DNA of 64,000 bases from an uncultured Acidimicrobiia bacterium. Lineage in GTDB: Bacteria > Acidobacteriota > Terriglobia > Versatilivoradales > Versatilivoraceae. The first letter of the stretch is position 1. Each line of letters begins with the position of its first letter. This document shows positions 23,400 to 57,460 of this stretch, in pieces. The position numbers were made by a program, and so were the translations under genes. The notes under the pieces are model-generated. The model had not been told where the DNA came from, did not search any database, and saw only the letters and a program-made list of their open reading frames with translations. The DNA is taken from positions 19,407 to 83,406 of the forward strand of contig CAWBTP010000002.1 in assembly GCA_963791795.1 (NCBI GenBank), written 5' to 3'.

Positions 23400-23455
23400 C
23401 CCCTCATCCGACCTTCGGCCACCCTCTCCCACGGGGAGAGGGCTGGGGCGAGGGG
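23400..23455. repeat. REP-like composite palindrome; empty version of the element at 46162
   Basis: cccctcatccgaccttcggccaccctctcccacggggagagggctggggcgagggg. Confidence 0.75.
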
Positions 23456-23505
23456 TAGCCGCAATACAGAGCGACACTCATGCGAATTTACTTATGTCGC
23501 CCTTT

Positions 23506-29706: not shown

Positions 29707-29817
29707 AAGCGCTCCAATGAAACAAGGCGTTGGCTTCTCTAAATCACAAAGAGTTTCTTTGCCGCGAAGTGGGTCCAGTGCCCTCGCTCCGCCAAAGGAG
29801 CGGAACACTTTTTGCAC

Positions 29818-30669: not shown

Positions 30670-30888
30670 GGGTCACTGGATGATCGAGTGGATATCGGCG
30701 CTAGCCGGCGAGAACAATAGCGGCTTCGCCGAGCCATTGGCAACGGTAAAACACGCAGGACGGGAACTGAACATTCATCTTTGTGAGAGGAGCTATGGAC
30801 ACTGTGCTAAATTCGAGCGGTTCGCTACCGGGCAGTTTGCGAGAGAGTTTCATGCCGCCTGCCAGTGCCACGTTCGATGAAACAGCGT

Positions 30889-31008
30889 CCCCCTAAGGGG
30901 GGACTTCAGGGGGGTTTTGGAACGGGAACAAACCCACCCCGGCACTCCGCGACCGCGTGGAGTCTTCTCAAGACCCCACCTTCGCGCCATCCCTCCGGCG
31001 GAGGGGAT
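30889..31008. repeat. REP cluster containing a nested type-B insert (30945-30982)
   Basis: cccctaagggggg...gggggg, then acccaccccggcact[insert]tcgcgccatccctccggcggagggga. Confidence 0.7.
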
Positions 31009-31032
31009 TTCAAAAGTGTTGAGGACTCCGAA

Positions 31033-31617
31033 ATGACGCATTGGGTGCTGGCGTCGTCATCTCCACGACGACAGGAGCTGTTGAAGCTGTTGCTGGCCGA
31101 TTTCGAGGTGGTTCCGAGCAATGTGGACGAGTCGGTTCTGGCTGGCGAATCACCAGAGACACTGGTTGCGCGTCTGGCCCGCGAGAAGGCTCTCGCGGTT
31201 CAGGTGCGCTATCCCGCAGCTCGAATTGTCGGTGCAGACACTGTGGTGGTTCGCGATAGAGAGATTCTGGGGAAACCAGCTTCACATGATGATGGCCGGA
31301 GCATGCTCAGGAAATTGAGCGGGAAAACACATCAGGTTTTGACAGGGATGTGTCTTCTCCACATGGACACTACATTTGTAGAATGCTCGACTACTGACGT
31401 GACTTTTTTCCACTTGACCGATCTGGAAATCGAAACCTACCTGCAATCGGGTGAGCCCTTCGACAAGGCAGGTGCCTATGCAATTCAGGGACTCGGGGCG
31501 CGCTTTGTGGAAAGAATTGATGGTTGCTACTTTAATGTTGTTGGATTGCCCGTTCCAAAGCTTTATCAAATGATGAAACGGCTCGACCTCGAAGTTTCAC
31601 GGAAACAAAGGGGTTAA
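31033..31617 (+). CDS. maf: Maf-family nucleoside triphosphate pyrophosphatase
   Basis: LASSSPRR, GADTVV, ILGKP, DKAGAYAIQG, NVVGLP; GAGGA RBS before ATG 31033. Confidence 0.93.
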   Translation: MTHWVLASSSPRRQELLKLLLADFEVVPSNVDESVLAGESPETLVARLAREKALAVQVRYPAARIVGADTVVVRDREILGKPASHDDGRSMLRKLSGKTHQVLTGMCLLHMDTTFVECSTTDVTFFHLTDLEIETYLQSGEPFDKAGAYAIQGLGARFVERIDGCYFNVVGLPVPKLYQMMKRLDLEVSRKQRG

Positions 31618-31637
31618 AGCAGTGGCAACGCTCAGCC

Positions 31638-33395: not shown

Positions 33396-33507
33396 CTTTT
33401 GTCCAGCAAGTGGGCTGGTACGAAGATCTAACCTAAAGCCGTACCCGAAGCGACTTTCCCAAGGCTGCGCGCCACATGACAGACGGCGTGTTGGCATCCT
33501 TTCAAAT

Positions 33508-33535
33508 TTGCATTGTCCAGCAATCACGGTATAAT
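33508..33535 (+). promoter_or_regulatory. Putative sigma70 promoter
   Basis: TTGCAT-16 nt-TATAAT upstream of the nucleotide-sugar dehydrogenase. Confidence 0.55.
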
Positions 33536-33611
33536 CGCCGCTCGTTTTTGCAATCCCAAGAGACGGTTTACGCCGGGCATAATCTAGACAGGTAATCGCC
33601 TGAACACTCCT

Positions 33612-34907
33612 ATGAACGAACTACTGAAAAAGATTGCGGAAAAGCGAGTTCAGCTCGGTGTCATTGGAATGGGCTATGTTGGATTGCCGCTGGCCGTGGA
33701 AATCGCGAATGCTGGCATTCAAGTGGTCGGGATTGATCTGGACCGCTCAAAAGTCGAAAGGATCAACGCAGGAACTTCCTATATTCCTGATGTTCCTTCT
33801 GAAGCGGTTGAGAAGCACGTGAAGGCGAAACGTCTCCGTGCAGTGGCGGATTTTAAAGTCATTCGTGAGCTGGATGCAGTCATCATTTGCGTGCCGACTC
33901 CATTGGGCAAAACGAAGGACCCTGATTTGTCCATGGTTGTTTCAGCTGTCGATCGCATTGCCGAGAACCAGCGGCCTGGCCAGTTGGTGGTGCTTGAAAG
34001 CACCACATATCCAGGCACGACTGAAGAATTGATTCTGCCAAAATTGGAAGAACGAGGCCTAAAAGTCGGGAAGGACTTTTTCCTGGCCTTCTCACCAGAA
34101 CGCGTCGATCCTGGGAATCCAACCTTCCACACTTTCAACACTCCCAAGGTCATCGGAGGCGTGACTCCGCAATGTCTTGACGTTGCTTCGAAGCTGTACA
34201 GCCACTTCATTCAGCGGATCGTGCCCGTCTCCTCCTCCCAGGCAGCCGAGATGGTGAAGCTGCTAGAAAACACGTTCCGAAGCGTGAACATCGGTCTGGT
34301 AAACGAAATGGCCTTGATGTGCGATCGGTTGAAGGTGGACGTTTGGGAAGTGATTGAAGCTGCGGCAACCAAGCCGTTCGGCTTCATGCCGTTCCAGCCA
34401 GGGCCAGGTCTAGGCGGGCATTGCATTCCCATTGATCCGCTCTATCTGTCGTGGAAGCTGAAAACACTCAACTACCGCGCCCGCTTTATCGAACTGGCTA
34501 GCGAAATCAATGCGGATATGCCCCACTACGTGGTGAACAAAGTAAACGACGCGCTCAATGACTTCAGTAAGTCGGTGAAGAACTCCAAGGTCTTGATCCT
34601 AGGCGTCAGCTACAAGAAAGACATCGACGACCTCAGAGAGTCTCCAGCTCTCGACGTCATTCAGTTGCTGCAACAGCGCGGTGCCAAAGTGATGTATCAC
34701 GACCCCTACGTGACGGAACTTGGGTTCGAGCACACCCTGCTCAAGTCCATGCCGCTCGAACAAGGTTTGACGGAAGCAGACTGCGTGGTTATCGTCACCA
34801 ACCACAGCAACATCGACTATCCGAAAGTGGAGCGAATGGCCAAAGTCATTTTGGACACCCGGAATGCGATGCGCGGCATCAAGAGTTCCAAGGTCATCAA
34901 GCTTTAA
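33612..34907 (+). CDS. UDP-N-acetyl-D-hexosamine 6-dehydrogenase (WbpA/TviB-like)
   Basis: GMGYVGLP, CVPTP, ESTTYPG, SPER, KLLEN, GGHCIP. Confidence 0.9.
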   Translation: MNELLKKIAEKRVQLGVIGMGYVGLPLAVEIANAGIQVVGIDLDRSKVERINAGTSYIPDVPSEAVEKHVKAKRLRAVADFKVIRELDAVIICVPTPLGKTKDPDLSMVVSAVDRIAENQRPGQLVVLESTTYPGTTEELILPKLEERGLKVGKDFFLAFSPERVDPGNPTFHTFNTPKVIGGVTPQCLDVASKLYSHFIQRIVPVSSSQAAEMVKLLENTFRSVNIGLVNEMALMCDRLKVDVWEVIEAAATKPFGFMPFQPGPGLGGHCIPIDPLYLSWKLKTLNYRARFIELASEINADMPHYVVNKVNDALNDFSKSVKNSKVLILGVSYKKDIDDLRESPALDVIQLLQQRGAKVMYHDPYVTELGFEHTLLKSMPLEQGLTEADCVVIVTNHSNIDYPKVERMAKVILDTRNAMRGIKSSKVIKL

Positions 34908-35530
34908 TGAATCTGCCGAATTTCCTGACACTGTCGCGGATTTTCGCGGTGCCGTTGCTCGTGGTTGTGTTGTTAACACGGGTCTACAACCCCGCTCGTG
35001 AAGTGGTCGGCGTTTCCATCTATCTAGCGACCGTGATCTTTCTAGGAGCTTCGATCACTGATTATTTCGATGGCTACCTGGCACGAAAGCGCCAGCAAGT
35101 GACCACGCTCGGCATCTTGCTCGATCCTGTTGCCGACAAATTGCTGACTTCCTCTGTGTTCATCTCGCTGGTGGAACTCAAGTGGGTTCCGGCTTGGATG
35201 GTTGTCATCATTGTTGGCCGCGAATTTGCTGTTTCCGGATTGCGCAGTATCGCTTCTTCGCAAGGCTTCACCATTGATGCTTCCGATCTGGGAAAGGTCA
35301 AGATGGTGATGCAGGTGGTGGCGATCACACTCGTCATCCTGAGAAATGTTTTCCCCTGGCTCACCGTGTTCAGCCGGGTAGCGCTAGGGTTGGTTGTGAT
35401 TTTTGCCCTAGCCTCCGCAGTTCAGTATTTTCGTAGATTTTGGAAGAAGGTAGATGACCGCGTCAAAGCCCGTCAGCGAAGAAAGCTCCTCGTCCTGAAG
35501 AAGAGGCAGCGCGATGTCCCCACTCAGTGA
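34907..35530 (+). CDS. pgsA: CDP-diacylglycerol--glycerol-3-phosphate 3-phosphatidyltransferase
   Basis: NLPNFLT.SR, DYFDGYLAR...G..LDPVADK. Confidence 0.9.
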   Translation: MNLPNFLTLSRIFAVPLLVVVLLTRVYNPAREVVGVSIYLATVIFLGASITDYFDGYLARKRQQVTTLGILLDPVADKLLTSSVFISLVELKWVPAWMVVIIVGREFAVSGLRSIASSQGFTIDASDLGKVKMVMQVVAITLVILRNVFPWLTVFSRVALGLVVIFALASAVQYFRRFWKKVDDRVKARQRRKLLVLKKRQRDVPTQ

Positions 35531-36059
35531 GTCTGCTCAGTCGGAACTACTCACTCTCAGCCGCAACAGCCTTCAAGAATTCCTAAAGCAAGGAAGAAAG
35601 CAGATTAAAGAATCAACCTCGCCGGAACTGCTGGAACGTCGAGGTGTGTTCGTTACGCTCCACAAACATGGAGAATTGCGGGGTTGCATCGGCGTTCCCG
35701 AGCCGGTTTCTCCGCTGTTCCAGGCGGCGCAAGAGTGCGCCCTGTCGGCAGCAGGATCAGATCCCAGATTTTCTCCGGTCACCGAGGTCGAACTGCCCGA
35801 CGTAAAGCTTGAGATTTCGGTGCTTTCACCCCTTGAAGCCACGGAAAACATCGACTCGATTGTCATTGGAGTGCACGGGCTGCTGTTGAATCATCAAGGC
35901 CGGCGCGGTCTGCTCCTACCTCAGGTTCCAGTAGAACACGGTTGGGATCGTGAGATGTTTCTCGAGCAACTCTGTCGGAAGGCGCATCTACCAGCGACAG
36001 CTTGGAAGGAAGGCGCGAAGATTCAGCGTTTCAGCGCCTTCGTTTTCGGTGAGAAATAG
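35514..36059 (+). CDS. AMMECR1-domain protein (AmmeMemoRadiSam protein A-like)
   Basis: GVFVTL...LRGCIG, DPRF, EISVLS, LLLPQV. Confidence 0.88.
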   Translation: MSPLSESAQSELLTLSRNSLQEFLKQGRKQIKESTSPELLERRGVFVTLHKHGELRGCIGVPEPVSPLFQAAQECALSAAGSDPRFSPVTEVELPDVKLEISVLSPLEATENIDSIVIGVHGLLLNHQGRRGLLLPQVPVEHGWDREMFLEQLCRKAHLPATAWKEGAKIQRFSAFVFGEK

Positions 36060-36102
36060 GCGGGATTCCCGAGGTTCAAGCAAGAGCTTGAGGTATAAAA
36101 CG

Positions 36103-37336
36103 CTACTCTTTCTCCATGCCGTCACCAACTGCAATGGACTCGGTACTGTGGGTAATCATCATGGTTGACACGTTCGGTTCAACGCGGAGCACGACAGCCT
36201 GGCCAATTACCTTCCGAACGCTGTCGAAAGTTTCCTTGTTCTTTGTGTAGTCCCCTCGATTGAAGAGGCTGATGGTATCCTTATTAAAGCGTCGGATGAC
36301 TCGGAAATAGTCTCCCACTTGGACGTTTTGTTTGCCGCCCGCATCCAGATAGACGATGTGGCCGGTACCGAGGAGCCTTCGGAATTCCTTGGTCATGAAA
36401 ATCCGGCCCGAGGTGTTGTTATTCGGGGCCGCAAACTTGTCAAAAGTGATTTCCGGGCGCTGCAAAGGAGAAACCCTCTGTTCTCCCGCGGTCACCAAAT
36501 CGCCAACCAGAATCTCTTCACAGGCGAAAATGATCTCGGCGGTAGCGGCTTTGTCCTGGGAGAGCAGGACGCGAACCCTGCCGACATCTTGATAGTAGTG
36601 GCCATACTTCTGGGCTGACTTCGCAGGACCAAACTCGGTTCCCCACTTCGCAAAATCCCTGATGAGCCGGACCACTTGAAGCTCGTCGCCTGCTTTGATT
36701 CCCGCAGACGTGCCTTGATTGAGGTAAATGACGTCGCGATCGCTGAATAGCGCCTTCGATTCTGACTCTTCGCCACCCACCAAGATAGCTTTCTGCTGAA
36801 CTGGCTCGGCACTAAAGAAACCCGCGCAGTACAAGTCACTGTAGGTTGCCGCGGGCGGTGGGGCCTACGGGTGCCGTCGGTGTCGGAGGAAGTTGTTGGA
36901 CGGTCTGCGGCGGGGCAGGTGGTGCAGGCGGAGTCGAAACCGGTGGTTCAGGCTGTTTTGCCGGCTCAGGGGTCTTCTCGGCTGGTGCCGTATTCATCAC
37001 AATCAGCTTCTTGATCAGAATCTGGTCGCCAGGATATATCCAGTGTGGGTTCCTGACATGATTGTTCATCTCCCAAATCTGGGGCCACAAGAAGGGATCG
37101 TTTAGGTACTGTTTGCCCAGTTCCCAGAGAGTATCTCCCTGTTTCACAGTATGAACTTCATACCCTTCGGCTCCTGGAGCAGCCGGATTGACAGACCAGT
37201 GATTGGCCGGTTGCTGCTGGGATAATGGTCGAGGGGGAGTTCCTTGAGCAGGCGGCTTTCGAGTTTCTGCCTGTCCCGCTCCCAAGAACAATAATCCAAT
37301 TAAAGTCCAACGAAGTGTTTGAGTCACTTTCATCAC
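36103..37336 (-). CDS. LysM-domain exported protein, split by a +1 frameshift at ~36855-36866
   Basis: LysM HTVKQGDTLW...WPQIW..N....NPHWIYPG; the downstream frame continues ..ATYSDLYCAGF as one protein. Confidence 0.8.
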
Positions 37337-37571
37337 GCACGTCTCCTGAACAATGCCAAGGAATACTCAGGCTGGTTTCATTGCCCGCTTACGGCGCTCG
37401 AATCGATCTGAGAGTCTACGCAACTGACGCTAACAAAAGGACTTTTTGGCTGTCAAGCGATTAGCCCGATGCTGGGGGCTCTCTAGGTTCCCAACGGTCC
37501 TTGTGTTAGACTTGCGTTCTTGCCGCACCCCGTTTATCGGAATCCTTGCGATGGCACTTTAACTTTACTCC

Positions 37572-39089
37572 TTGAAATTCAACTGCATAAGTGAGCGCAG
37601 TTCGGCAGCCGGTAACCCAAGCAGGGTCTGTGTTGTTGTACGCGAGGCAAATCCCGCTTCCATGGAGGCTTCGATTGTCAAAGCTCGAGACTCCAAGGGG
37701 ATCATGGAGTTTCGCCTTGACTACCTGAGACCTGAACATCTTCACGCATCAAACGTTGCGAAGTGGGTGGAGCTCGCGCAAGGTCCGGTTGTGCTCACCT
37801 TGCGTCGAAGAGCCAATGGCGGAGAATTTGATGGTGGCGAAGCGGACCAAGTCCGAGTCCTCGAATCGCTTAGGGGAGCTTTCGTCGATCTGGAGATCGA
37901 AACGATTGAAGGGTTTCTGGGAGGAAGTCTCGCTCCTCTAAAGCCGGCTCCATTCTCCTGGATTGCTTCGTACCACAACTTCCACGAAACGCCGCCAGAT
38001 CTATCGGTCATCTATCGTCGCCTGAGGAACTGTGGAGCCAACATAGTCAAGATTGCAACTCAAGCTCGCAACTTCTCGGACAACATTCGCCTTTTTGAAC
38101 AGGTCGAGGAAGCCCGCCGAGACGGAATCCCAATCATCATTGCCGCAATGGGTGAGTTGGGAACATTCTCACGTCTTACGGCGACTGGCAGGGGTTCGCT
38201 GTGGACGTACGCTTCGCTCCAAAAAGGCCGCGAGAGTGCGCCGGGCCAGTTCACCGCCTCGGAGCTGACGAATCTTTACTCAGTCGATGAGATAGACGAA
38301 GCGACACAATTCTACGGAGTGATTGGCTGGCCCGTAGGTCACTCGCTGTCCCCGCACATCCATAATCCGGCGCTGCGACAATTGGGCATGAATGCCCGGT
38401 ATTTGCCTTTTCCAATTCAGGACCTGAAGGATTTTGGGCCTCACCTGCGACGTTTCGCAGGCTTCAGCGTTACCATCCCGCACAAGGTGCAGATCCTGGA
38501 TTTCGTCGATGTTGTTGACGAGACCGTCAAGGAAACGGGCGCCGCAAACACCCTCGTCCATCGAGCAGGAAAACTGTTTGCCTACAACACCGACGTCTAC
38601 GGAACGCAACAGGCGCTCAAGAAGCCCTTCGACGATGGGGTTGACACAGTAACGATGGTGGGAACGGGGGGTGCCGCTCGGGCCGCGGCGATCGCACTCA
38701 AAAAAATGAACTGCAAGGTAACGGTTCTCGCCAGAGACGTTGAGAAAGCTCAGCGATTTGCGGCAGAGTTTGGATTTGCAGGCAACGCACTGAGCAACGC
38801 GGAACAATGCAAAGGCGATCTCCTGATCAACGCGACATCCGTCGGCATGTCTCCTGGTATCGACCAGTCGCCGATACCTGCTGAGGCGCTGGATTATCGC
38901 TACGTATTCGACATGGTCTACAATCCGCTGGAAACGCGCCTCCTGCGGGAAGCCCGGCGAGGGAGCACTGTCATCAGCGGAGTTGAGATGTTTGTCGCTC
39001 AGGCGGCACGGCAATTCGAGTTGTGGACGGAGCGCAAGGCACCAACACAGTTGATGCGTGAGATCGTCTTGCGGCAGTTGGCAAGCTAG
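37572..39089 (+). CDS. aroE: Bifunctional type I 3-dehydroquinate dehydratase / shikimate dehydrogenase (AroD-AroE fusion)
   Basis: EFRLD, SYHNF, VKIA, AMG, APGQ (AroD) fused to HSLSP, SVTIPHK, NTD, GTGGAA, NATSVG, DMVYNP (AroE); start uncertain. Confidence 0.9.
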   Translation: MKFNCISERSSAAGNPSRVCVVVREANPASMEASIVKARDSKGIMEFRLDYLRPEHLHASNVAKWVELAQGPVVLTLRRRANGGEFDGGEADQVRVLESLRGAFVDLEIETIEGFLGGSLAPLKPAPFSWIASYHNFHETPPDLSVIYRRLRNCGANIVKIATQARNFSDNIRLFEQVEEARRDGIPIIIAAMGELGTFSRLTATGRGSLWTYASLQKGRESAPGQFTASELTNLYSVDEIDEATQFYGVIGWPVGHSLSPHIHNPALRQLGMNARYLPFPIQDLKDFGPHLRRFAGFSVTIPHKVQILDFVDVVDETVKETGAANTLVHRAGKLFAYNTDVYGTQQALKKPFDDGVDTVTMVGTGGAARAAAIALKKMNCKVTVLARDVEKAQRFAAEFGFAGNALSNAEQCKGDLLINATSVGMSPGIDQSPIPAEALDYRYVFDMVYNPLETRLLREARRGSTVISGVEMFVAQAARQFELWTERKAPTQLMREIVLRQLAS

Positions 39090-39138
39090 TGCGCAAGCAA
39101 ACCATGAAAAGCGAACGCCTGCGGCAGTATCTAGACCA

Positions 39139-40107
39139 ATGACTCTTCGGAGATCCATTCAAGTTCCAGCAAGCACTACAAACTTGGGTGCCGGTTTTGA
39201 CGTCCTCGGTCTGGCCTTGCAGCTGTACCTGCGCGTCAACCTTGAAGAAATCTCGCGTCCGCAACCGGAGTTTGAGTTACTGGGAGAAGGTGCCGCTGAC
39301 TTGCCCGCTAGCGAGGAGAACCTACTGTGGAAGGTGACGCGCCATGTCTTTGAGGGAGAAAAGCAATCCGTGCCTGGAGTGCGCCTCAAGATTGAGAACC
39401 AAATTCCGCTTGCCCGAGGCCTGGGAAGCAGTGCTGCAGCGATTGTGGCGGGTATTAGTTGCTTCGAGGCTCTCACCGGGCGCGAACTCTCGCCAGACAA
39501 GTTCTTCCAGTATGCTTTTGAATTCGAAAACCACCCCGACAACATCACAGCTGCTCGATTTGGTGGTTTCACCGTCAGTGCTGTGACCGAAAGTGGGAAG
39601 GTGTCGTTCTTCCGGGCCCCCCTTGCGCCAAAGCTCAAGATCCTGCTCACCGTACCGGAGTTCCATTTGGAAACACAGAAAGCGCGTGCGGCGATTCCAC
39701 AGACCCTCGACCTGCGAGACGCGGTGTTCAACCTTCAACGAAGCTCGCTTACGGTAGCGGCGCTTCTTAGGAGCGAGTTTCATTTTCTCCGCGAAACGCT
39801 CCGCGATAAGCTTCATCAGCCGTTCCGGGCACCGCTGATTCCTGGCTTTGAGGAGATTCTGAGTTTGAATCGGGAAGAGATTTCGGGCCTGGCAGGTATT
39901 TGCCTCAGCGGCGCCGGTCCGAGCGTCCTGACTTTTGCCGAGGGGAATTTGGACGAGATTTATTCCCGAATCGCTGCGATCTTCGAGCGCCACGGTCTTC
40001 GATCCAGACGCTTCGAATTGGAAGTTGACAATCAAGGTAGGAACGATTTCCTAAGAGAAGGCAACCGCGAAGACGCGAAGAACGCGAAGAGAGACCGGTT
40101 AGGGTGA
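39139..40107 (+). CDS. thrB: Homoserine kinase; true stop may be ~40054
   Basis: VPASTTNLGAGFD, PLARGLGSSAA, HPDN, LSGAGPS. Confidence 0.93.
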   Translation: MTLRRSIQVPASTTNLGAGFDVLGLALQLYLRVNLEEISRPQPEFELLGEGAADLPASEENLLWKVTRHVFEGEKQSVPGVRLKIENQIPLARGLGSSAAAIVAGISCFEALTGRELSPDKFFQYAFEFENHPDNITAARFGGFTVSAVTESGKVSFFRAPLAPKLKILLTVPEFHLETQKARAAIPQTLDLRDAVFNLQRSSLTVAALLRSEFHFLRETLRDKLHQPFRAPLIPGFEEILSLNREEISGLAGICLSGAGPSVLTFAEGNLDEIYSRIAAIFERHGLRSRRFELEVDNQGRNDFLREGNREDAKNAKRDRLG

Positions 40108-40301
40108 TGCTCGATGATTCAGGACGTGCTTCCCTGAATTCTAGTGTTTTTGTTCTGGATTGTTTCAGCTCTCATACACCATTCTTCTTTCTGAAAGGAG
40201 ACTTGCCTCACCGTTAGTAGAAGCTAACAAAACGGCTGCGCGAGACAGACCTTGAAGAGCACTGAATCAGTTTTCTTCGCGTTCTTCGCGCCTTCGCGGT
40301 T
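40063..40301. repeat. Inverted-repeat element with arms of three CGCGAAG units
   Basis: aaccgcgaagacgcgaagaacgcgaaga (40063-40090) vs tcttcgcgttcttcgcgccttcgcggtt (40274-40301), 27/28 complementary. Confidence 0.85.
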
Positions 40302-40316
40302 AGTCTTTCTGTCGCT

Positions 40317-41291
40317 ATGAAAACACTCACTCAGATTCCCCTCGGCACCCAGCTCCTGTTCGGCAAAGCTGCCAAGAAACGTCGTCGGATTGAACGGGCG
40401 ATCTTTTCGGTCTTTGAACGCTGGAACTACGACGAGATCATTCCGCCCATCTTCGATTACTACGATGTTTTTGCGAGAGGCATGGGAGCTGCGTTTGAAG
40501 ACACGCTTTATCGTTTCATCGATCGCGAAGGCAACATTCTCGCGCTGCGGCCGGAGTTTACCTCGTTGGTTGCCAAGTCGGTAGCCACGCGACTTGCCGA
40601 TCATCCGAAGCCGTTGCGCCTGTGCTACTGCGGCGAAGTGCTCCGATACGAAGCGCCGCGTGGCGGAAGGCAGCGCGAGTTTTTCCAAATCGGAGTTGAA
40701 CACATCGGCGGAGAGCACATCCAGTCGGATGCTGAGATCATTCTGGTCGCAATCGAGTCCCTCAAAAAGCTGGGCATTCGCAGGTTTCAAATCAATCTCG
40801 GAGAAATCGGCTATTTTTCCGGCATTGTCGAGCGGATGAACTTTTCCCGTGACGATCTGGCGACGATCAAGACCCTGGTGGATCTGAAGGACACCGTCGG
40901 CCTGCGCTCGGAACTCGAACGCCTCGCGCTCTCCGAAAAGCGGCGGAACATCCTCCTCACCCTCGTTCATCTCACTGGCAATTCAGACACGCTGCAAACA
41001 GCCCGCCAGTTGGTCACAAACGAGAAGTCGCTAAAGGCACTGGATCACCTGGAGGCCTTGCTTGCAGAACTGAAGAAGCACAAGGTGGAGGATCACATCA
41101 CGATTGACTTGAGTGAAGTACGCGGGCAGGACTACTACACGGGAACCATTTTCAAGGTCTATGTCCCCGGCCTCGGTTTCGAAATCGGTGGCGGGGGCCG
41201 CTACGACAACCTGTTCAAGAACTTCGGATGTGACTTTCCATCGGTCGGCTTTTCCTTCAGCCTGGAACGCCTGATGGCAATGGGGGAATGA
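40317..41291 (+). CDS. hisZ: ATP phosphoribosyltransferase regulatory subunit
   Basis: HisRS-like LALRPEFT, REFFQIGVE, YYTG, GGGRYD, no anticodon domain; upstream of short hisG. Confidence 0.92.
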   Translation: MKTLTQIPLGTQLLFGKAAKKRRRIERAIFSVFERWNYDEIIPPIFDYYDVFARGMGAAFEDTLYRFIDREGNILALRPEFTSLVAKSVATRLADHPKPLRLCYCGEVLRYEAPRGGRQREFFQIGVEHIGGEHIQSDAEIILVAIESLKKLGIRRFQINLGEIGYFSGIVERMNFSRDDLATIKTLVDLKDTVGLRSELERLALSEKRRNILLTLVHLTGNSDTLQTARQLVTNEKSLKALDHLEALLAELKKHKVEDHITIDLSEVRGQDYYTGTIFKVYVPGLGFEIGGGGRYDNLFKNFGCDFPSVGFSFSLERLMAMGE

Positions 41292-41301
41292 GAGCTATTC
41301 A

Positions 41302-41946
41302 ATGAAGGAAACGATCACCATTGCGCTTTCCAAAGGCCGCTTGCTTGATGAGGCGCTGCTTCTTCTCAAGAAGGCGGGCATCGAGATTGCCGAGTCGAGC
41401 CTGAATTCACGCAAGCTGGTAGTGACAGACACACAGAAACGTTTTCAGTTTTTCATGGTGAAGCCCATCGACGTTCCAACCTATGTCGAGTACGGGGTTG
41501 CCGACGTTGGCATTGCGGGCCGGGATGTTCTGGCCGAATCCAGTGCCGACGTCCATCAGCCTCTCGATTTGCGCATTGGGTTCTGCAGAATGGTGGTGGC
41601 GGCACCCAAAGCAGCGGCGCGACAGGACTACAAAGAACTGTCGGCCGTTCGCATTGCCACGAAGTATCCTCGTGTCACGACCGAATACTTCACGCATCGA
41701 GGCATTCCAGTCGAGATCATTCCTCTTTCGGGAAGTGTTGAACTGGCGCCCCTGCTGGGACTCTCAGACCGAATTGTCGACTTGGTGTCTTCCGGACGGA
41801 CCCTCGCTGAGAACGGTCTCGAGATTGTTGAGCCCATCATGGACATCTCGGCACGACTGGTTGTGAATCGTGCCAGCTATCAAATCAAGCGGTCAGCAAT
41901 CACCGGATTGATCGAGATGCTGTCGAAAGTGGTCGAGAAAGACTGA
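41302..41946 (+). CDS. hisG: ATP phosphoribosyltransferase (short form)
   Basis: IALSKGR, DVPTYVEYG, IATKYP, GSVELAP, DLVSSGRTL. Confidence 0.96.
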   Translation: MKETITIALSKGRLLDEALLLLKKAGIEIAESSLNSRKLVVTDTQKRFQFFMVKPIDVPTYVEYGVADVGIAGRDVLAESSADVHQPLDLRIGFCRMVVAAPKAAARQDYKELSAVRIATKYPRVTTEYFTHRGIPVEIIPLSGSVELAPLLGLSDRIVDLVSSGRTLAENGLEIVEPIMDISARLVVNRASYQIKRSAITGLIEMLSKVVEKD

Positions 41947-41957
41947 AGGTTCCGAGG

Positions 41958-42176
41958 CATTGAGACACAGAGGAAGAAGTTGGACGCAGAATTCGCAGAT
42001 AAACGCAGATCGAGCCAGAGAAAGCAGAGAAACTAAGAACAGCGACCACGCCGGCACTTGTGCGGAACCCTCTTTTGGGACCCGCTTCGAAAAAATCTCG
42101 TAGTTGGCCTGCTTCCATCTGCGTTCATCTGCGCAATCTGCGTCCGATGCTTTTCCTGGGTCTCCGTGCCTCAGTG
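41958..42176. repeat. Two nested inverted-repeat elements with 9-bp periodic arms
   Basis: Inner arms 41982-42010 / 42117-42145 (three CGCAGA units, 26/29 complementary); outer arms 41958-41972 / 42162-42176 (12/15). Confidence 0.8.
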
Positions 42177-42190
42177 GCCATCCCCATCTC

Positions 42191-43484
42191 ATGATCATTC
42201 CGATTTTCGATTGGAATACACCTGAACTCCATAGCTATCTGAAGTGGATTGAGTCCCGCGGCTCAGCGCCCGACGAGGCCATCGAGGCAGCAAGTGTCCG
42301 AAATCGTTACGGCTGTTCGCACGCGGGGAGACGACGCAGTTCGCGAATTCACACACCGTTTTGAAGGAATCGATCTCAAGAGCCTTCGCATTGACCCGGA
42401 GGAGATTCGCAAACTTGCAGCGCAAGCCGACCCAGAGCTGCGGCAAGTGCTCCGGCTTGCGAGGGAAAACATTCGGCGGTTTCACGAGCGCCAGTTGGAA
42501 AAATCCTGGGAGATCGAAGGGGCCGATGGGGTCCGCCTCGGCCAGCGGATTCGTCCGCTCCAGTCGGTTGGGCTTTATGTGCCAGGTGGCACCGCCGCCT
42601 ATCCTTCAACGGTTCTCATGAACGCAGTGCCGGCACAAATTGCAGGGGTGCCGCGAATTGTCGTGACGACACCGCCTCATCAATTCCACAAGAACCCGGT
42701 CATCGCGGCGGTTCTTGAGGAACTGGGGTTGGAGGAGGTCTACGGAATAGGCGGCGCTCAGGCCGTGGCCGCCCTAGCCTATGGTACCGAGACAGTGCCC
42801 AAGGTGAATAAGATTGTTGGGCCGGGCAACATTTATGTGGCTACAGCCAAGCGTCAGGTCTACGGCGTGGTTGATATCGATATGATTGCAGGCCCGAGCG
42901 AGGTCGTTGTGGTCGCGGATGATTCTGTCGACCCGGATTTTGTGGCGGCCGATCTCCTGGCTCAAGCAGAGCACGACGAAAACGCTTGCGCGATTGCTGT
43001 TGTCGTGTCGAAGGAGTTCGCTCTAGCCGTTCAAAACAGCGCGGCTTGTCTCATCAAGAATCTCAACCGGGAGAAGATCATTCAGAAAGCGTTGCAGAAC
43101 TATGGAGCCGTCATTGTCTGCAGCACCTGGGACGAGGTTGCCGAAGCGGTTAATGCCATTGCGCCGGAACATCTCGAATTGTTGATGAACACACCGGAGC
43201 CATTCGCGGAAAAGATCCATTCCGCTGGAGCCATCTTCTTTGGGGTCTATTCGTGCGAGCCAGTCGGCGACTACTTTGCGGGCCCCAACCATGTCCTGCC
43301 AACTTCAGGCGCCGCTCGCTTTGCGTCTCCGCTCGGTGTCTACGATTTCCTCAAAAAAACCAGCCTCATTAAATACACTCAAGCGGCGCTTCAGAAAAAC
43401 CATGGTTACATCGAGAGATTTGCTGAATCGGAAAAACTCGATGCCCATGCCCAGAGTGTCCGTATCCGATTCAAATCCAAGTAG
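42191..43484 (+). CDS. hisD: Histidinol dehydrogenase, +1 frameshift near 42286
   Basis: GLYVPGG, GPGNIYV, AGPSE, QAEHD, APEHLE, GDYFAGPNHVLPT; the N-terminus from ATG 42191 lies in the preceding frame. Confidence 0.93.
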
Positions 43485-43507
43485 CCAACCCTACAATCTC
43501 GAGGCGC

Positions 43508-43565
43508 CGTCATTCCCGCGAAAGAACGTCACCCCGGCGGACAGTAAGCCGGGGCGGGAATCCAG
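43508..43565. repeat. REP-like hairpin (cgtcattcccgcgaaag/cgggaatccag) containing a nested type-A insert (43525-43554)
   Basis: attcccgc/gcgggaat stem interrupted by aacgtcaccccggcggacagtaagccgggg. Confidence 0.75.
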
Positions 43566-43610
43566 TTTCCGTAGCATGCAGCCGCTGAAGCTAAGGGACC
43601 CTCCTCGGGA

Positions 43611-44084
43611 TTAGCGCCGGGGGATGGGTTGGAACTTGAACTCCATCTTCTGATGCTTCCCCTTCTCATCGCCTTCAATCTCGGCACGCAGGGAGCCATC
43701 CGCTTCTTTTGAGTACCGTATGACCTTGGGGTTATCGTGCTGAGGGTTTTCAAACACCGCCCGATTCTCCGATCGCTGCGTCAATTTGAACTCGACGGGT
43801 GGCCGGCCTTGTGGTTGTGCCACGTACACCGGCCCATCCGGCCGGCCCTCGATCCGCAAGAATTCAAAGGAAACAGTGCGGTCCCCTGCAACCGTCCTCG
43901 AAACCCCCAGCATCATGCCTCCCGCCGGCTGGATCCAGTGTTCCTCAATCTGCGCTTTGCCCATTGTTCCCTGCCATCCGCCGGCCAGCCAGGCAAGATC
44001 GGATAAGGACTCCCGGCTCTGTGCGGACAGGTTCGGGCCACCAACGACGAACATCAATAGCGAGAGCGACACAGCAAGCTGCAT
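43611..44084 (-). CDS. Secreted DUF6265-like protein
   Basis: Signal peptide, LAWLAG.W, EEHW, FEFLRI, FENPQHD.PK.IRY. Confidence 0.75.
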   Translation of the reverse strand: MQLAVSLSLLMFVVGGPNLSAQSRESLSDLAWLAGGWQGTMGKAQIEEHWIQPAGGMMLGVSRTVAGDRTVSFEFLRIEGRPDGPVYVAQPQGRPPVEFKLTQRSENRAVFENPQHDNPKVIRYSKEADGSLRAEIEGDEKGKHQKMEFKFQPIPRR

Positions 44085-44154
44085 CTCTTCTATCTCCTTT
44101 ACTGCGAACCAGGCAGCCTTGCCAAGCTGCCATCACAGTTATCGTGTTGATCCC

Positions 44155-44823
44155 TCACTCTCTGTCGTACACGATGCGGCTGAGTTGTCGCAGGTCGTCG
44201 ATCAGAAAATCGGGCTTGGGTTCGTGCAGGGTGTCACTGGCAAGGCCGTAAGTCACGCCGCAAGTGGCAACTGTGGCGCCACGTCCAGTCTGGATGTCGA
44301 TGTAGGAGTCTCCTACCATCACCGTCCGTCCACGCTCAGTCCCGGTGTCGGCTAGGATTTGCTCAATACCCACGGGATGAGGTTTCTTCTGCTCAAAGCT
44401 GTTGCCGCCGTAGACAACCGCAAACCGGTCGTCAATCTGCAGGCCTTGAAGAATTGCCAGCGTCGGTCTGACCGGCTTGTTTGTCAGAACCGCCAGCGTC
44501 AGAGGTCGGAGCGCTTCGAGAGCTTCAGCGACACCCGGATAGAGGGTGGTGTTGTCGAGAAGGTGCTCGCGGTAGTGAGACAGAAAGATCTCCAGTGCCC
44601 GTTGGACGTCCAACTCGCTCAGCCCTTCACCCATGGCGCGACGAATCAGCATCGTTGCGCCATCTCCTATGTAGCTGAAAATGAGTCGATGTTCGAGCTC
44701 TGAAAGCCCTATCTGATGCCGAGTGAAGTTGACACTGTTCGCCAGATCGAGCTTGGAATCGATCAGGGTGCCGTCAAGGTCGAAAATAACGAGATCGTAA
44801 CGTTGCCGGCCATTGGGTTTCAT
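44155..44823 (-). CDS. HAD hydrolase (phosphoglycolate phosphatase-like)
   Basis: FDLDGTLIDS, TNK, KKPHP, MVGDS..DI. Confidence 0.88.
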   Translation of the reverse strand: MKPNGRQRYDLVIFDLDGTLIDSKLDLANSVNFTRHQIGLSELEHRLIFSYIGDGATMLIRRAMGEGLSELDVQRALEIFLSHYREHLLDNTTLYPGVAEALEALRPLTLAVLTNKPVRPTLAILQGLQIDDRFAVVYGGNSFEQKKPHPVGIEQILADTGTERGRTVMVGDSYIDIQTGRGATVATCGVTYGLASDTLHEPKPDFLIDDLRQLSRIVYDRE

Positions 44824-44984
44824 CTTTCCTCGAGTTCACTCCTAATCGCGATCCTTCAACGACCGATGCCTCTGATCATCTCATCGAACCACGATGGTTT
44901 CTAGCAGAGCGTCCGGTGCTCGTCAAGTTGCAGCCCTCGGGTACAGGCGTTGACAGGAGCTAAGCCGGAGAAGACAATCTTTCC

Positions 44985-46083
44985 ATGCCTGCCATTTGGA
45001 TTGCTGCTGTTTTTCTGCTTGGCCTGCCAGACGCCTCGGAAGTTGTCTTTGAAAGAGCAGCCTCGGCTCTGGCAGCACAGGATTACGGCGCGGCAGAGCA
45101 GGGATTCGCCGCCGTTCTCAAGAAGCAGCCTAATCACATCGGAGCCCTCGGCAACCTCGGCGTTGTCTATTCCCGGACACAACGGTCGGCTCGGGCCATC
45201 GAGACTTACCGGCGTGCGCTGGCTTTGAACCCGGGAGACCTGGCCCTGCGCCTGAATCTAGGCTTGGTGTACTTCAAGCAGGAAAACTACCAGCTCGCCG
45301 CCAGGCAGTTTTCTCGGATTGTCGCAAAGCAGCCCAATCATCGTCAGGCACAAGAGCTGCTCGCAACGTGTCAGATTCATCTGGGTGAACCGAAGCTCGC
45401 GATCTCTTCTCTGGAATCCCTCAGAGAGTCTGATCCGAAGAATGCCGGCGTGTTGTATCTCTTGGGTATGGCCTACCTGAGAAACCAGCAGCCAGATAAA
45501 GCAAAGCCGCTTCTCGACGAGATGATGCTGACGGCTCTGAGCCCCGCGCAGGCACACTTCCTCTTGGGGAAGGCCTACTACGATGGCGCCCGATTCGCAG
45601 AATCCAGAGAAGCTTTTCTGAAGGTACTTGAGCTCGAACCTGCTTTCCCCAACGCACAACTGGAGCTTGGCAAGGTGTTGGTAAGTTTGAGGGAGCCCGA
45701 AGAGGCACGGGCCGCTTTTCTGACGGCGATGGAAAGGAATCCTCAAGATAGCGAGGCCCCATATTTCTTGGGGTCTCTCTTAGTGAACGAAGGACGCGTA
45801 GACGAGGCTGCTTGTTCCGCTGGCACGAGCAGAGCAACTAAACCCAGACTTCTGGGGGACGCTTTACTATTTGGGAAAAGCCAAATTGCAACTGAAGAAC
45901 CCAGCGGAAGCCGTCTCTCTTCTGCAGCGAGCTGCGGAGCTGAACAGCGAAGAGGATGCGATCTTCTACCAACTGGCACTCGCTTTGCGCGCCAGCGGTC
46001 GCCAAGCCGAAGCCAAAACAGCCATGGAACGGGTCAGCCAACTGAAAGCAAAAAAAAGAGCCCCGCTGTTGCGGGGCTCTTGA
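44985..46083 (+). CDS. Exported TPR protein, +1 frameshift near 45808
   Basis: Multiple TPRs (ALGNLG, LRLNLG, YLLG, HFLLG); the TPR pattern continues in the 45871-46083 frame. Confidence 0.8.
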
Positions 46084-46161
46084 AGAACGACGTGCGGAGA
46101 TGAGGATCTGAGCATAGCGAGCAACCTCATACCATCGAGGGTTGGCCTCCGCTGTGGACGG

Positions 46162-46253
46162 CCCCTCACCCGGCCTCCGCGACCGCGTGAAGTCTTCTAA
46201 GACTTCACCTTTGGCCACCCTCTCCCAATGGGAGAGGGGTTGGGGGTGAGGGG
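46162..46253. repeat. REP-like composite palindrome containing a nested type-B insert (46175-46211)
   Basis: Same host family as 23400-23455 plus a 34-bp insertion bounded by CCT...CCT. Confidence 0.8.
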
Positions 46254-46305
46254 TCAGTAGTTCAAACAAACTTGACCAAGTTTGAACTACCGCTGCCAAG
46301 TGGAA

Positions 46306-49300
46306 CTAGAAGTAAATCTTGAACCCAAATTGAATGTTTCGCGGGTCGCGGGTCGCATTCACCTGCCCGCTGGTGCCGCGAGTGGCGGCAGTGACTTGGG
46401 CGCCTGGGTTTGCTGCAGCGAGACCCGTATTAATGCCTGCCCACTGGGTATGGTTGAAGGTGTTGAAGGTCTCGAACCGGAACTGCGTGGTGATGCGTTC
46501 TGTGATTTTTGTGTTCTTGAACAGCGAGATATCCCAATTGTTGATGCCGGGTCCGTAGAGAATGCCCTTGCCAGTGGTTCCGAGCGACCCGTTCAGGGGA
46601 CGCGCAAAGACCAGCGGGTTGAAGTACTCTTCACGCGATTTCTTGGCAGGATACAAATCTCCACTCACATAGTCAGCTCGAACTCCGGTAGCTCCATTGA
46701 GTGTTCCTGCGTCAGCATTGTTAGCGTTCATGGTCATAGTCAGCGGCGTGCCACTCCAAAAACGCGTGATTCCCGAGACCTGCCAACCATCGAATACCGT
46801 TCGTCCAACTGCATTGTTCATCCACTTGGTTCCAACGTTTGGTAGCTGATAGACATAATCCAAAGTGAAGACCTGCCTGCGGTCGAATCCGGCAGGACCT
46901 CTTTCCCTCGCTCGATCCAGATAATAGCCGATGCCGGTGCTATCGTTATCCACTTCACTGATCGCCTTGGACCAGGTGTAGTTGGCATTCATGGTCAGAT
47001 TGTTTGCAAAACGCCGGCTTAAGCGGGCCTGAAGCGCGTGGTAGTTGCTGTTGGCTCCGAAGTCGGTGAAATTGATACTCGTGTAGCCTTTGAATGGACG
47101 AACAGCGTTGGCAGTATTATTGGCCTGCTGCAAGATCGTTGTATTGGTGGTTGTACCGAGAGGCAGCTGATTAATATCCCTGACATACTGCAGATGGCGG
47201 GCTGTGTTGCCAATGTAGCCGACGTCGACGGAAGTTTGACGGCCCAGCTCCCGCTGGACACCAAGACTCCAGGTATAGATTGTTGGGATGAGGCCCTGGG
47301 CGTCGAACGCTCTGAGCGCGACGGGGAAACGCGTCCCGCCTCCAACCAGATCCGGTGAGAGGTTGTCGACGTTGCCCCCGTACAGGCTGGGGTTGTAGGT
47401 CAGCGGCGGATTGGCCAACCCGTCGAACGAATTTACGTTCTGCCGGATGCGCTCAAAGAAGTTTCCGAAGCCGCCGCGAATGGAGGTCTTCCCGTCACCA
47501 AAAGGGTCATAAGCGAAGCCAAACCTTGGAGAGATCTGATTCTTGCGGTGCTTGGCAAAGCCCTTGGGAATTCCGTTTCCTTCGATCACGATTCCATTGA
47601 ACGGGTCGCCTGAGTTGGGAATGATGCTGCCGTTCCGCAAGCCCGAAGCTGTTTCGATCTGAACAGCCTTGGACGCGTCGTAGCGCGCCGGATCAAAATA
47701 TGGCTGCAAGAACTCGCCCAGGGTGTAGGTGGGCCCGAGGTAGACATAGCGAGCGCCAAACTCCAACGTCAGTTTTCGGTTCACCTTCCAACTGTCCTGC
47801 CCATAGAACTCCAGACCGTAGAATCTGAAGTCCCCGTAAAAAATGCCGTTGGTCTGAGTAACGCTTGTGTAGTTGCCCAACAGGAGATTCGCGAGCTGGT
47901 TGTTCGAGTCGTTGGGATTCTCCCGGTTCGGGCCAAAATTGAGGTTAATCGAATCGGTCCACGCAGGCTGCTGGCCATTGTCGTTACGATTAAAGAAGAC
48001 GCCTGTCTTGAACGTGTGAGCGCCGAGCACTCGCGTAAAATTGTCGGTCCAGGCAAACGTCTTGCCTTCGCTAAGCCAGCCCGAGGCAAAGCCTGGGAAA
48101 TTGCAATCGCCAATCCCGCAGTTGAAGCGCGGAAACTTGTTTCGGACGTTCACGGCTGGGTAGAGCTCCCTGAACGTAAACCCCAACTTGTCGCGGTCGT
48201 AGAGGCTCGTGTCCGCATCCTCGGTCACGTCGACAACCTGCGTCAGGTGGTTGTACGTGAAGATGAATTCATTGGTCGTCGTGGGCGAGATCACGTTGAC
48301 AAGGTTGCCAGACCAGCTGGAACCGGGCTTCTTGCGGTACTGTGGGAAGACCGGATACGGCGTCGAGGCAAAAATGCCCTGCCGTTTGGTCTTCGCGCTG
48401 TGAATCGTCTGCCCAGCGGAAAAAGAGGTTGGTTTTCGAACTCGCCTGCCAGTCGATCCGCAACACTTTGGCGTTCTTGTTGAACTTGTAACTATCCTGG
48501 AATGGGACACGAACCAATTGCGGACTGTTGGCTACAGGTATGCCTCCCGACCGGTCGAACGCACTCAGGACCTTCAGAAAAGCCGGCGCGTTGCGGCTCC
48601 ACTCTGCTCGTGGAATGATGTTGTCCGGATAGGCAACTCCGCCTGTAATCAAGCCAGCTGCGTTGCGGGTTATAGTTCCGGGGCGGAATACGGTTCCAAT
48701 GTCAAATTGAGGGGCTGTCGCAATCGGGGTTCCACGCAGAAGTCTCCGGAAATCGCCGTTCAGCAGGTCCGGATGAGGCAGATCGCGTGTGTTGTTGCCA
48801 AGCGGGCGCGTTGCGCGGGTGCCTTCGTAGTTGAAGAAGAAAAACAACCCGCGCTTCAAAATCGGGCCGCCGAGATTGCCGCCGAACTGGTTAAAACGCA
48901 ACTTCGGCGTAGTGCCGGTGGTATCGAACGGTTGGCGCGCGTCCAGGGCATTGTTTCTCAGAAATTCGTAAGCAGTGCCGTGAAACTGGCTGCCGCCGCT
49001 GCGGGTTGTGATTGAAAGCAGCACGCCGGGATTCCGGCCGTACTCGGCATTAAAGGCGCTGGTCTGCACTTTGAATTCGCCGACTGCATCCAGGCTGATC
49101 TGAGTGTACTGGCCGTCATTCGCGCCCACGTCGGTGTTAATGCTGCCATCGAGGTAGACGTTATTCGCACTGCCGCGCAGCCCGTTAACGTTGAAAGCAT
49201 CTGTGTTGTTAAAGGCCAGGCGAAAATCCGAGCGATCGTTCGAGACCACGCCAGGTAACGTGCGAATCAGGGACTGAAAGTCTCTTCCATTCAGACTCAA

Positions 49301-57410: not shown

Positions 57411-57460
57411 CAATTCCCCCTTAACAAAGGGGAAAAGGCCGAAGGCCTAGGGGGTTGTCT
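57411..57460. repeat. REP-like element (CCCCCTT..AAGGGG family)
   Basis: caattcccccttaacaaaggggaaaaggccgaaggcctagggggttgtct. Confidence 0.65.

Follow-up and report, generated by a model that had tools for sequence, protein, structure and literature searches.

We found that a 35-base hairpin unit, present twice in a 64-kb stretch of DNA from an uncultured soil bacterium of the Acidobacteriota (assembly GCA_963791795.1, contig CAWBTP010000002.1, positions 19,407 to 83,406; this whole stretch is called the window), is a discrete hairpin cassette nested at the CTNCG tip of a short side hairpin, P3, in four related families of composite repeats. A copy of the tip 5-mer stands at each end of the cassette, which therefore comes and goes as one clean block. 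Its distribution among genomes is narrow and patchy, and no transposase gene is linked to it. The window lies on contig C2 of the assembly (7.29 Mb, 35 contigs, 56% GC), which is referred to as G000.

Anatomy of the two cassettes in the window

The unit is located at 46175-46211 (copy 1) and at 30945-30982 (copy 2). Both sequences read as the initial annotation of the window had given them, and the compensatory change from A-T to G-C that it had pointed out is present in copy 2. The unit consists of CT, one variable base, a 9-nt tag, a 10-bp hairpin, and then CT, and the consensus of the hairpin is GTGRARTCTT-CTC-AAGAYTYCAC. A 20-nt core of the unit matched the window twice with no mismatch, while the mean in shuffled sequences was 0.01 and none of 100 shuffles had two or more matches. 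When folded as DNA, the hairpin of copy 1 reached -7.6 kcal/mol (z -3.7; 0 of 200 shuffles were as good) and that of copy 2 reached -6.2 kcal/mol (z -2.0; 6 of 200 shuffles were as good). The fold of copy 2 is weaker because one of its pairs is an uncompensated A.C, its arm reading AAGACCCCAC where the genome consensus is AAGACTCCAC. The loop of copy 1 is CT, one base less than the consensus CTC. The features of the two filled hosts and of one empty host are as follows.

46162..46255, plus strand: core of a composite palindrome of host family A (subfamily A2), with outer stem CCCCTCACCC/GGGTGAGGGG, P3 GGCC..GGCC holding the cassette, and inner hairpin CCCTCTCCC-aat-GGGAGAGGG
46175..46179, plus strand: left copy of the CTNCG tip motif of P3, in the form CTCCG, whose last bases double as the start of the cassette tag
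46178..46186, plus strand: cassette tag CGCGACCGC, which the type A cassette described below has in common
46187..46208, plus strand: type B hairpin GTGAAGTCTT-CT-AAGACTTCAC
46209..46213, plus strand: right copy of the tip motif, CTTTG (consensus CTTCG)
30844..31018, plus strand: whole composite repeat of host family B, a row of four hairpins, which a related contig of the public run X20 lacks as one block
30933..31006, plus strand: core of host B, consisting of CCCACCCC, then P3 (GGCAC..GCGCC) with the cassette, then P4 (TCCCTCC-ggc-GGAGGGG)
30945..30984, plus strand: second cassette with both tip copies, namely CTCCG, tag at 30948-30956, hairpin GTGGAGTCTT-CTC-AAGACCCCAC at 30957-30979, and CTTCG at 30980-30984
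23401..23457, plus strand: core of host family A (subfamily A1) with P3 empty and tip CTTCG at 23413-23417, aligned with a filled relative on contig C10

The filled host at 46162-46255 folded as a three-way junction composed of the outer stem, the inner hairpin, and P3 (-31 kcal/mol, z -6.4). The unit sits at the 3-nt tip of P3 and not in the main hairpin of the host. The empty host at 23400-23457 took the same fold with a bare P3. In the folded form, the P3 tip and both cassette junctions are single-stranded. The initial annotation had placed both insertions in a hairpin loop with CT at both junctions, and this is correct for both copies, CT directly adjoining the unit on each side and the loop being the tip of P3. 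It had also regarded the two hosts as unrelated, which did not stand, since one plan and one target motif are common to all four host families. The site at 23400, which it had taken for the empty version of the first host, does belong to family A, but it is of subfamily A1 and the filled host is of A2. A closer filled partner of this empty site is found on contig C10.

Copies in the genome and the tip rule

A blastn-short search with three variants of the unit gave 76 loci in the genome, 53 of them at 40 bits or more. A 32-nt degenerate pattern had 24 exact matches and 45 matches when up to two mismatches were allowed, and the reversed control had none. These numbers bear out the proposal that the two copies belong to a discrete multi-copy unit. 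According to their flanks, the 53 copies were assigned to host A (17, of which 15 by script and two by eye), host B (21, of which 20 by script and one by eye), host C (nine), and host D (six), and CT immediately precedes the unit in 45 of them. A strict census was limited to hairpins with at most one stem mismatch and contained 52 hairpins, of which 37 were tagged. In the tagged set, CT is directly 5' of the unit in 33 of the 37 copies and directly 3' in 36, the exact motif CTTCG is on the 3' side in 26, and a host stem of at least 4 bp lies directly around the unit in 25. Thus, as the initial annotation had expected, nearly all copies are at a hairpin tip with CT on both sides. All 37 have the same orientation relative to the tip.

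Although the sequences of the four host families differ, their plan is the same, with C-rich and G-rich hairpins and the side hairpin P3. They are composite palindromic repeats of about 80-175 nt, similar to miniature inverted-repeat transposable elements (MITEs) and repetitive extragenic palindromes (REPs). The stems of P3 vary and covary (GGCC, GGCGC, GAAGGC, GCGCC, AAGGCC, and others), while the tip is invariably C-T-N-C-G, in which a C-G pair closes a loop of three bases (CTTCG, CTGCG, or CTCCG). This tip is the sole sequence common to all hosts, and the same 5-mer is found on both sides of the unit, in the form CTNCG + CGACCGC-hairpin + CTTCG. Many copies of hosts B, C, and D stop 10-40 nt short of a start codon that has a Shine-Dalgarno-like AGGAG. 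A fourth member of this repeat superfamily is also present in the window.

57416..57458, minus strand: host family D-type element with P3 empty, ACAACCCCC .. AGGCC-TTC-GGCCT .. CCCCTTTGTTAAGGGGG, tip CTTCG

A second cassette and ordered arrays

The same CTNCG site also accepts a shorter cassette, which we call type A to distinguish it from the type B unit described above. Type A is 12 nt long (CGACCGC[T/C]GTCG), and its first 7-9 bases are as in type B. In one variant (CACGAC..GTCGTT), the pairing is retained through a two-sided change. Type A was found alone, doubled (A+A), or 5' of type B (for example, C22:154691 (+), C27, and C10 in host A, and many copies of host C). The arrays read tip-A-tip-B-tip. 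Their order was A then B in all four A+B cases (two on C10 and one each on C15 and C26), and it was A then the untagged hairpin GTGAAGGCTT in 7 of 7 cases.

Empty versions are present in every host family. The 52 rows matched by the host A regular expression, which include five chance matches, comprise 27 empty copies, 15 with type B, one with A+B, and four with type A only. One more filled A1 copy, on C13, was missed by this expression. For host B, a hand count of 48 rows gave 13 empty copies, four with type A only, one with A+A, 13 with type B only, two with A+B, seven with A followed by GTGAAGGCTT, and eight long or other forms. Among the copies listed of the 99 rows for hosts C and D, host C had three empty copies, about 20 with type A only, and four with A+A, type A alone being the commonest state. 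Three host-B copies (two on C5 and one on C32) carry a longer insert of about 60 nt after type A, which ends in a GGCCGTTGGCC hairpin. A locus in a named metagenome-assembled genome (L089) has a context related to these copies, with hairpin B behind it.

The 15 untagged hairpins of the strict census are other arrangements. Those of the form GTGAAGGCTT..AAGCCTTCAC are 3' of a type A cassette and continue straight into the next host hairpin, while hairpins with ATGAAGGCTT or GTGAACGCTT replace P3 or its right half. The untagged variant GTGAAGGCTTCTCAAGCCTTCAC (for example, on C8, C27, and C10) has TGAAGGCTTC and GCCTTC in common with P3 of host C (CTGAAGGCTTCGCCTTC, for example at C8:49403). Judging from these stretches, hairpin B may have descended from a P3 hairpin that was lengthened at its tip.

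The regularity of the arrays could also be explained without any insertion, if the ancestor of the hosts had A+B in P3 and all other forms arose through slippage deletions between tip motifs. Deletions between direct repeats can turn tip-A-tip-B-tip into every other form, A always precedes B, and A+B forms occur in hosts A, B, and C. Hairpins between direct repeats are classic substrates of deletion, and the loss of A would be easy because A and B share 12 nt (CTNCGCGACCGC). However, the A+A forms require a duplication. Moreover, the hosts cannot be aligned outside P3 while the cassette is near-identical, and very unequal constraint would be needed to maintain this. We therefore consider an origin by deletion unlikely, and the stem variants and the relatives described below also argue against it.

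Filled and empty paralogues and variants of the stem

The empty copy at 23400 and the filled copy on C10 are sisters on a tree of 23 host-A1 copies from which P3 was left out (support 97/96). They match over about 140 nt except for a single 34-nt block. A second filled/empty pair, on C15, differs by one 35-nt block. On the host-A1 tree, which is poorly resolved (one starred branch of 20), the filled state needs eight changes compared with a shuffled mean of 7.4, and therefore it is not clustered.

Two-sided changes were found at four of the 10 stem positions among 61 hairpins with a CTT-loop-AAG core and at least 9 of 10 pairs, two of which are unrelated chance hairpins. Position 1 changed from G-C to A-T three times, position 4 from A-T to G-C 15 times, position 6 from G-C to A-T 10 times and to C-G four times, and position 7 from T-A to G-C 15 times. 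The variants are distributed unevenly among the hosts. All 17 hairpins in host A have GAAGYC (16 GAAGTC and one GAAGCC), and all nine in host C have GAAATC. Host B has 16 of the GGAG type, mostly GGAGTC, and five with GAAGTC (the B-like copy C9+42217 included), and in host D three are of the GGAG type and three have GAAGTC. Three hosts (A, B, and D) thus have GAAGTC, and two (B and D) have GGAGTC. Since these variants are common to several hosts, the unit was passed between host families more than once, or it was exchanged. The same distribution weighs against the ancestral A+B array.

Distribution among relatives and orthologous sites

The exact tagged unit was found in none of 300 other genomes drawn evenly over the phylum. 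In contrast, the tagged unit with up to two mismatches was present in five of 31 genomes of the family: 45 copies in G000 (this genome), 15 in G010, seven in G002, two in G016, and one in G005. No copy was found in 14 genomes of one genus or in the same-genus genome G001, and draft assemblies may lose repeats. All 25 copies examined in the relatives keep the register ct-n-cgcgaccgc, hairpin, cttcg, and for the most part they are in the same hosts as here. In G010, 12 of the 15 copies are in host A2, and in G002, five of the seven are in host C with GAAATC.

Empty host-A tips with at most one mismatch numbered 185 in G010, 77 in G016, 26 in G002, three in G005, and one in G001. Empty hosts thus outnumber filled ones by more than 10 to 1 both in G010 (185 vs 15) and in G016 (77 vs 2). 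Host A is present in all five relatives that were asked, while only 5 of the 31 family genomes have the tagged cassette. Both observations count against the deletion of an ancestral A+B array.

Many host-A2 copies of G010 (L106-L120, for example L106:1-332) have a third nested hairpin, GGGAGCTTTGAGAAAGCTCCC, in the right arm, which around its loop is similar to hairpin B read on the reverse strand. The exact pattern of this right-arm hairpin has 27 copies in G010, of which eight are filled with the cassette and 19 are not, and one filled copy lacks it. Therefore, all four combinations of cassette B and the right-arm hairpin exist.

We also scanned named genome records with the hairpin pattern and found at least 83 loci. 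Among the matches listed, the labels, as given in the records, are Acidobacteria or Terriglobia and in some cases Acidimicrobiia. By the labels of the named metagenome-assembled genome records that carry the same composites, the one family of soil bacteria in which these repeats occur is probably of the Acidobacteriota. Unrelated contexts are also among the matches listed: five in Solimonas/Pseudomonadota, one in Paenibacillus, and one in Dehalococcoidales. The five Solimonas/Pseudomonadota loci (L034, L035, L059, L062, and L084) have identical flanks on both sides, and they look like a conserved gene or RNA with a similar hairpin that is unrelated to the repeats studied here. On these results and those from the sampled genomes, spread of the unit between phyla was rejected.

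Orthologous sites were compared in several ways. The surroundings of 46162 have no nucleotide-level synteny in any relative. Contigs of four public runs were compared with positions 27100-46900 of the window. In a contig of run X20, which is about 91% identical, 30843 is joined to 31019 with GATA between them, and the whole 175-nt host-B repeat is missing together with its cassette. The repeat at 30844-31018 is followed directly by a Shine-Dalgarno-like GAGGA and by an ATG (about 31021-31036), and therefore a repeat was inserted or deleted between a gene and its upstream region. A second X20 contig (four differences in 403 nt) runs into the cassette at 46175, and thus the site is filled there too. 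In G010 and G016, whose genes are 85-88% identical, one genome has a host-A repeat in the orthologous spacer where the other has some other repeat. These comparisons show that whole hosts come and go at orthologous sites. The initial annotation had looked forward to filled/empty pairs. Empty versions of every host family do exist, but in the relatives, in the contigs of the public runs, and between G010 and G016 we found no pair at an orthologous site that differs by the cassette; only whole hosts differ.

Candidate enzymes

The cassette might be a non-autonomous micro-transposon that is mobilized in trans by an HUH enzyme (Y1, RAYT-like, or Rep-like; RAYT, REP-associated tyrosine transposase). 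Such an enzyme would nick the C|T of the CTNCG tip and rejoin the strands, so that segments between two tip motifs are released or inserted and tandem arrays arise. We regard this as possible but doubtful. Several of the observations above fit it: CT at the junctions in 33 and 36 of the 37 tagged copies, a tip and two junctions that are unpaired in the fold, the constant orientation to the tip (37 of 37), the REP-like anatomy of an unpaired tag followed by a hairpin with a conserved stem, and the patchy occurrence among genera (5 of 31 genomes). In vitro, TnpAREP has been reported to cut at C|T on the 5' or 3' side of REP hairpins (Corneloup et al. 2021, PMC8266576), and the cassette tag has CCGCGACCG in common with the structures described as flanking class 3 TnpAY1 genes (Quentin et al. 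2018, PMC6006769). Furthermore, there are 13 matches to PF01797 (Y1_Tnp) in the genome, five of which are intact genes of about 160-175 aa. These five (L001-L005) are located as follows.

C31:143054-143395: intact Y1_Tnp gene
C5:26096-26440: intact Y1_Tnp gene
C3:253580-253918: intact Y1_Tnp gene
C26:302164-302502: intact Y1_Tnp gene
C34:95737-96081: intact Y1_Tnp gene

None of the 13 PF01797 matches is flanked by the unit. The nearest copy is 1.9 and 2.6 kb away for two of them and more than 10 kb away for nine, and the remaining two share no contig with a copy. The two neighbors within 3 kb are unremarkable because about 0.6 would be expected by chance according to our own estimate. The intact genes have the Y---Q--HH motif, as given for subclass 1.2 by Quentin et al. 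(PMC6006769). None of them is flanked by the cassette or a host repeat; each is flanked by REP-like hairpins of its own (for example, CCAGCCCAGGGC..GCCCTGGG and GGCCTGAAAGGCC), and they are separate REP/Y1 systems in the same genome. Longer RAYT-like genes are also present, on C21 and C3. PF01797 was found in 27 of the 31 family genomes, some of which have 21-27 matches and no cassette, and therefore a correlation of cassette and Y1 at the Pfam level is uninformative; this wide occurrence also speaks against the HUH enzyme.

The other candidates were rejected. The published consensus of the class 3 TnpAY1 REP, searched as two regular expressions, had no match in the genome. There was no PF07282 match in the genome that would represent a TnpB/IS605-type partner. 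For the IS110 family, the genome has three matches over the cut-off and a weak one, and no host or cassette motif is within 500 nt of the three strong IS110-type genes. The initial annotation had suggested that one of these enzymes mobilizes the element and that the hairpin might flank its gene. This claim was not supported because none of the Y1/RAYT genes and none of the three IS110 genes is flanked by the unit.

Other properties of the cassette are also difficult for the HUH enzyme. Peel-and-paste transposition of the IS200/IS605 type does not predict that the element starts by repeating the next bases of its target (TNCG), and the fixed order of A then B requires an extra assumption. The orientation of the cassette has no bias relative to GC skew (21 vs 32, p 0.17), a test that mostly reads the orientation of the host.

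Tests of a function in gene expression

If the cassette were a selected structural module, such as a protein-binding hairpin on a terminator-like or leader-like element, it would be kept for its function and not for its mobility. The pairing of the stem is retained through double changes at four of the 10 positions, an untagged hairpin of the same type replaces P3 or its right half in some copies, and many copies of hosts B, C, and D are 10-40 nt before a start codon with AGGAG, all of which would suit a functional module. The AGGAG and ATG after so many copies also suggested an obligate RNA element of the 5' untranslated region. This was rejected, since the downstream gene is on the same or the opposite strand about equally often for host B (20 vs 21) and for hosts C and D (50 vs 40), as judged from crude gene calls. 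The cassette itself has no bias relative to the local majority of genes (27 vs 26). By the same crude calls, host A is mostly antisense to the neighboring genes (27 vs 9). A known RNA family was also rejected, as there was no Rfam match at the gathering score in the 64-kb window, which contains two filled and two empty hosts. Moreover, filled and empty copies coexist in every family, and a selected function leaves the spread of the same 35 nt to four host families unexplained. For these reasons a functional module is in our view very unlikely.

Origin and spread of the cassette

Recombination and copying errors among the repeats could account for the unit-level events, an explanation that we hold tentatively, at somewhat less than even confidence. 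Between recombination or template switching at 5-nt microhomology and nicking and joining by an HUH enzyme, we slightly favor the former. The cassette would multiply mainly as a passenger when its host repeat is amplified. Within a host family, it would be gained and lost by gene conversion. Between host families, it could be transferred through template switching at the 5-nt (up to 7-nt) microhomology of a stalled hairpin tip, and slippage between the two tip copies would remove it. The apparently compensatory changes in the stem may reflect palindrome correction as well as selection.

Several results are in favor of copying errors among repeats. The unit has the same boundaries in all hosts, and the paralogue pairs differ by one block of 34-35 nt. 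The cassette has no linked transposase gene, cassette-free genomes of the family commonly have Y1 genes, and there is no GC-skew bias. Copying errors need no unseen gene, and they explain both the duplicated tip and the fixed order of A then B. Most copies seem to derive from the amplification of host and cassette together, because each variant of the hairpin is largely confined to one host and other genera have the same composites. Of the mobile micro-element inserting into REPs that the initial annotation had proposed, the discrete unit is upheld, but most of its copies look like amplified composites. Within a host family the state of the cassette probably changed repeatedly, and transfers between families were probably few.

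There are also points that weigh against copying errors. Two template switches at a homology of 5 nt happen only rarely, and we saw neither an intermediate nor a footprint of them. Tag and hairpin have been conserved between genera, with two-sided stem changes at four of 10 positions, for which recognition by a protein would be at least as good an explanation. In the fold, tip and junctions are single-stranded, and CT is the dinucleotide that REP-associated Y1 enzymes are reported to cleave (PMC8266576). The excess of empty over filled hosts in the relatives fits a gain of the cassette and is silent on its mechanism, and among the sites compared there was no orthologous filled/empty pair at the level of the cassette.

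A bolder possibility, which we think is rather unlikely, is that recombination takes place at the CTNCG triloop tip through an as yet undescribed single-strand nick-and-join system, HUH/Rep-like, that acts in trans and moves hairpin cassettes of 12-30 nt between the tips of repeat hairpins into ordered arrays (tip-A-tip-B-tip). If this were true, the arrays could be regarded as small non-coding counterparts of integron cassette arrays, and the cassettes would be the smallest enzyme-mobilized bacterial DNA units known.

Comparison with known small repeats

The small dispersed repeats (SDRs) of cyanobacteria, reportedly described by Elhai et al. in 2008, are said to be about 21-27 nt long and nested in each other or in hairpins, and their mobility is said to have been inferred by comparing related genomes. 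SDRs are not known to have an enzyme. The unit is nested in hairpins and forms arrays, in which it may resemble SDRs; it differs in that it is in a different phylum and has different sequences. IS621, a member of the IS110 family, inserts into REPs through a CT core. The unit likewise has CT at both junctions and a repeat hairpin as the target, in contrast to which the three IS110-type genes of this genome lack the host and cassette motifs nearby.

Similar to the systems of REPs, REP doublets forming hairpins (REPINs), and RAYTs, the unit is a short extragenic hairpin in high copy (22-23 nt with arms of 10 bp; 45-53 copies with the tag) that has CT borders and, at one of its ends, an unpaired tag. 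TnpAREP is reported to cleave at this dinucleotide (Corneloup et al. 2021, PMC8266576). Unlike in those systems, the GTAG or CGTC foot is absent, CGCGACCGC being directly before the hairpin in all 37 tagged copies, and no RAYT gene is flanked by the unit. The unit also has 5-nt direct repeats of the host tip, A-B arrays, and one fixed position in four repeat families. REPs inside small target palindromes have been described by Di Nocera et al. (2013, PMC3733652) for T. roseum (CCGSSCC n3-4 GGSSCGG), A. variabilis, and H. neapolitanus, together with a REP superfamily (CGTC) without a dedicated transposase. Class 3 TnpAY1 REPtron-like systems have been reported in Acidobacteria and Planctomycetes, with about 600 copies in Solibacter usitatus (Quentin et al. 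2018, PMC6006769). They are from the same phyla, and their flanks, given as CnGA-GCCGCGACCGTnAGGGAGCG, have the 9-nt CCGCGACCG in common with the cassette tag, but their consensus is absent from this genome and the second half of the structure differs.

With MITEs, the unit shares a target-site duplication, CTNCG being on both sides and CT starting the right copy in 36 of 37 cases. This duplicated tip is also the expected trace of microhomology-mediated events. The ends of the unit (the tag and CAC-CT) are not terminal inverted repeats, and no gene with such ends was found. Repetitive hairpin-forming elements are reported from sponge mitochondria (PMC2800124), and the unit may be compared with these and with the GC clusters of yeast mitochondria. 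These GC clusters (for example, GC42) are mobile units of 30-45 nt that form hairpins and putatively have a short target duplication (Wu and Hao 2015, PMC4478555). According to the same source, they merge and shuffle and spread by homologous recombination at their flanks, with the mechanism unresolved. Unlike the unit, GC clusters are organellar and lie in AT-rich spacers and not at a host hairpin tip, and their sequences are unrelated.

In the literature on acidobacterial extragenic palindromes and on nested REP/RAYT hairpins, we found no description of these Acidobacteria-type repeats, which does not show that there is none. REPs in small palindromes and REP superfamilies without a dedicated transposase (PMC3733652) and shuffling hairpin GC clusters (PMC4478555) are already in print. 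New here is the explicit rule: the CTNCG tip is repeated on each side of the unit, two cassettes have their tag in common, the arrays are ordered, and the hosts are of four families.

Significance

The origin, diversification, and spread of very small palindromic repeats is an old question for REPs, SDRs, and mitochondrial GC clusters. The clean rule found here, together with genomes that have 45, 15, 7, 2, 1, and 0 copies, makes enzymatic and copying-error mechanisms directly testable. Moreover, composite repeats can be seen here to grow by nesting hairpins in hairpins. Such nesting affects genome assembly and intergenic structure, and perhaps also gene expression where a repeat falls between a promoter and a ribosome-binding site, as at 30844-31018.

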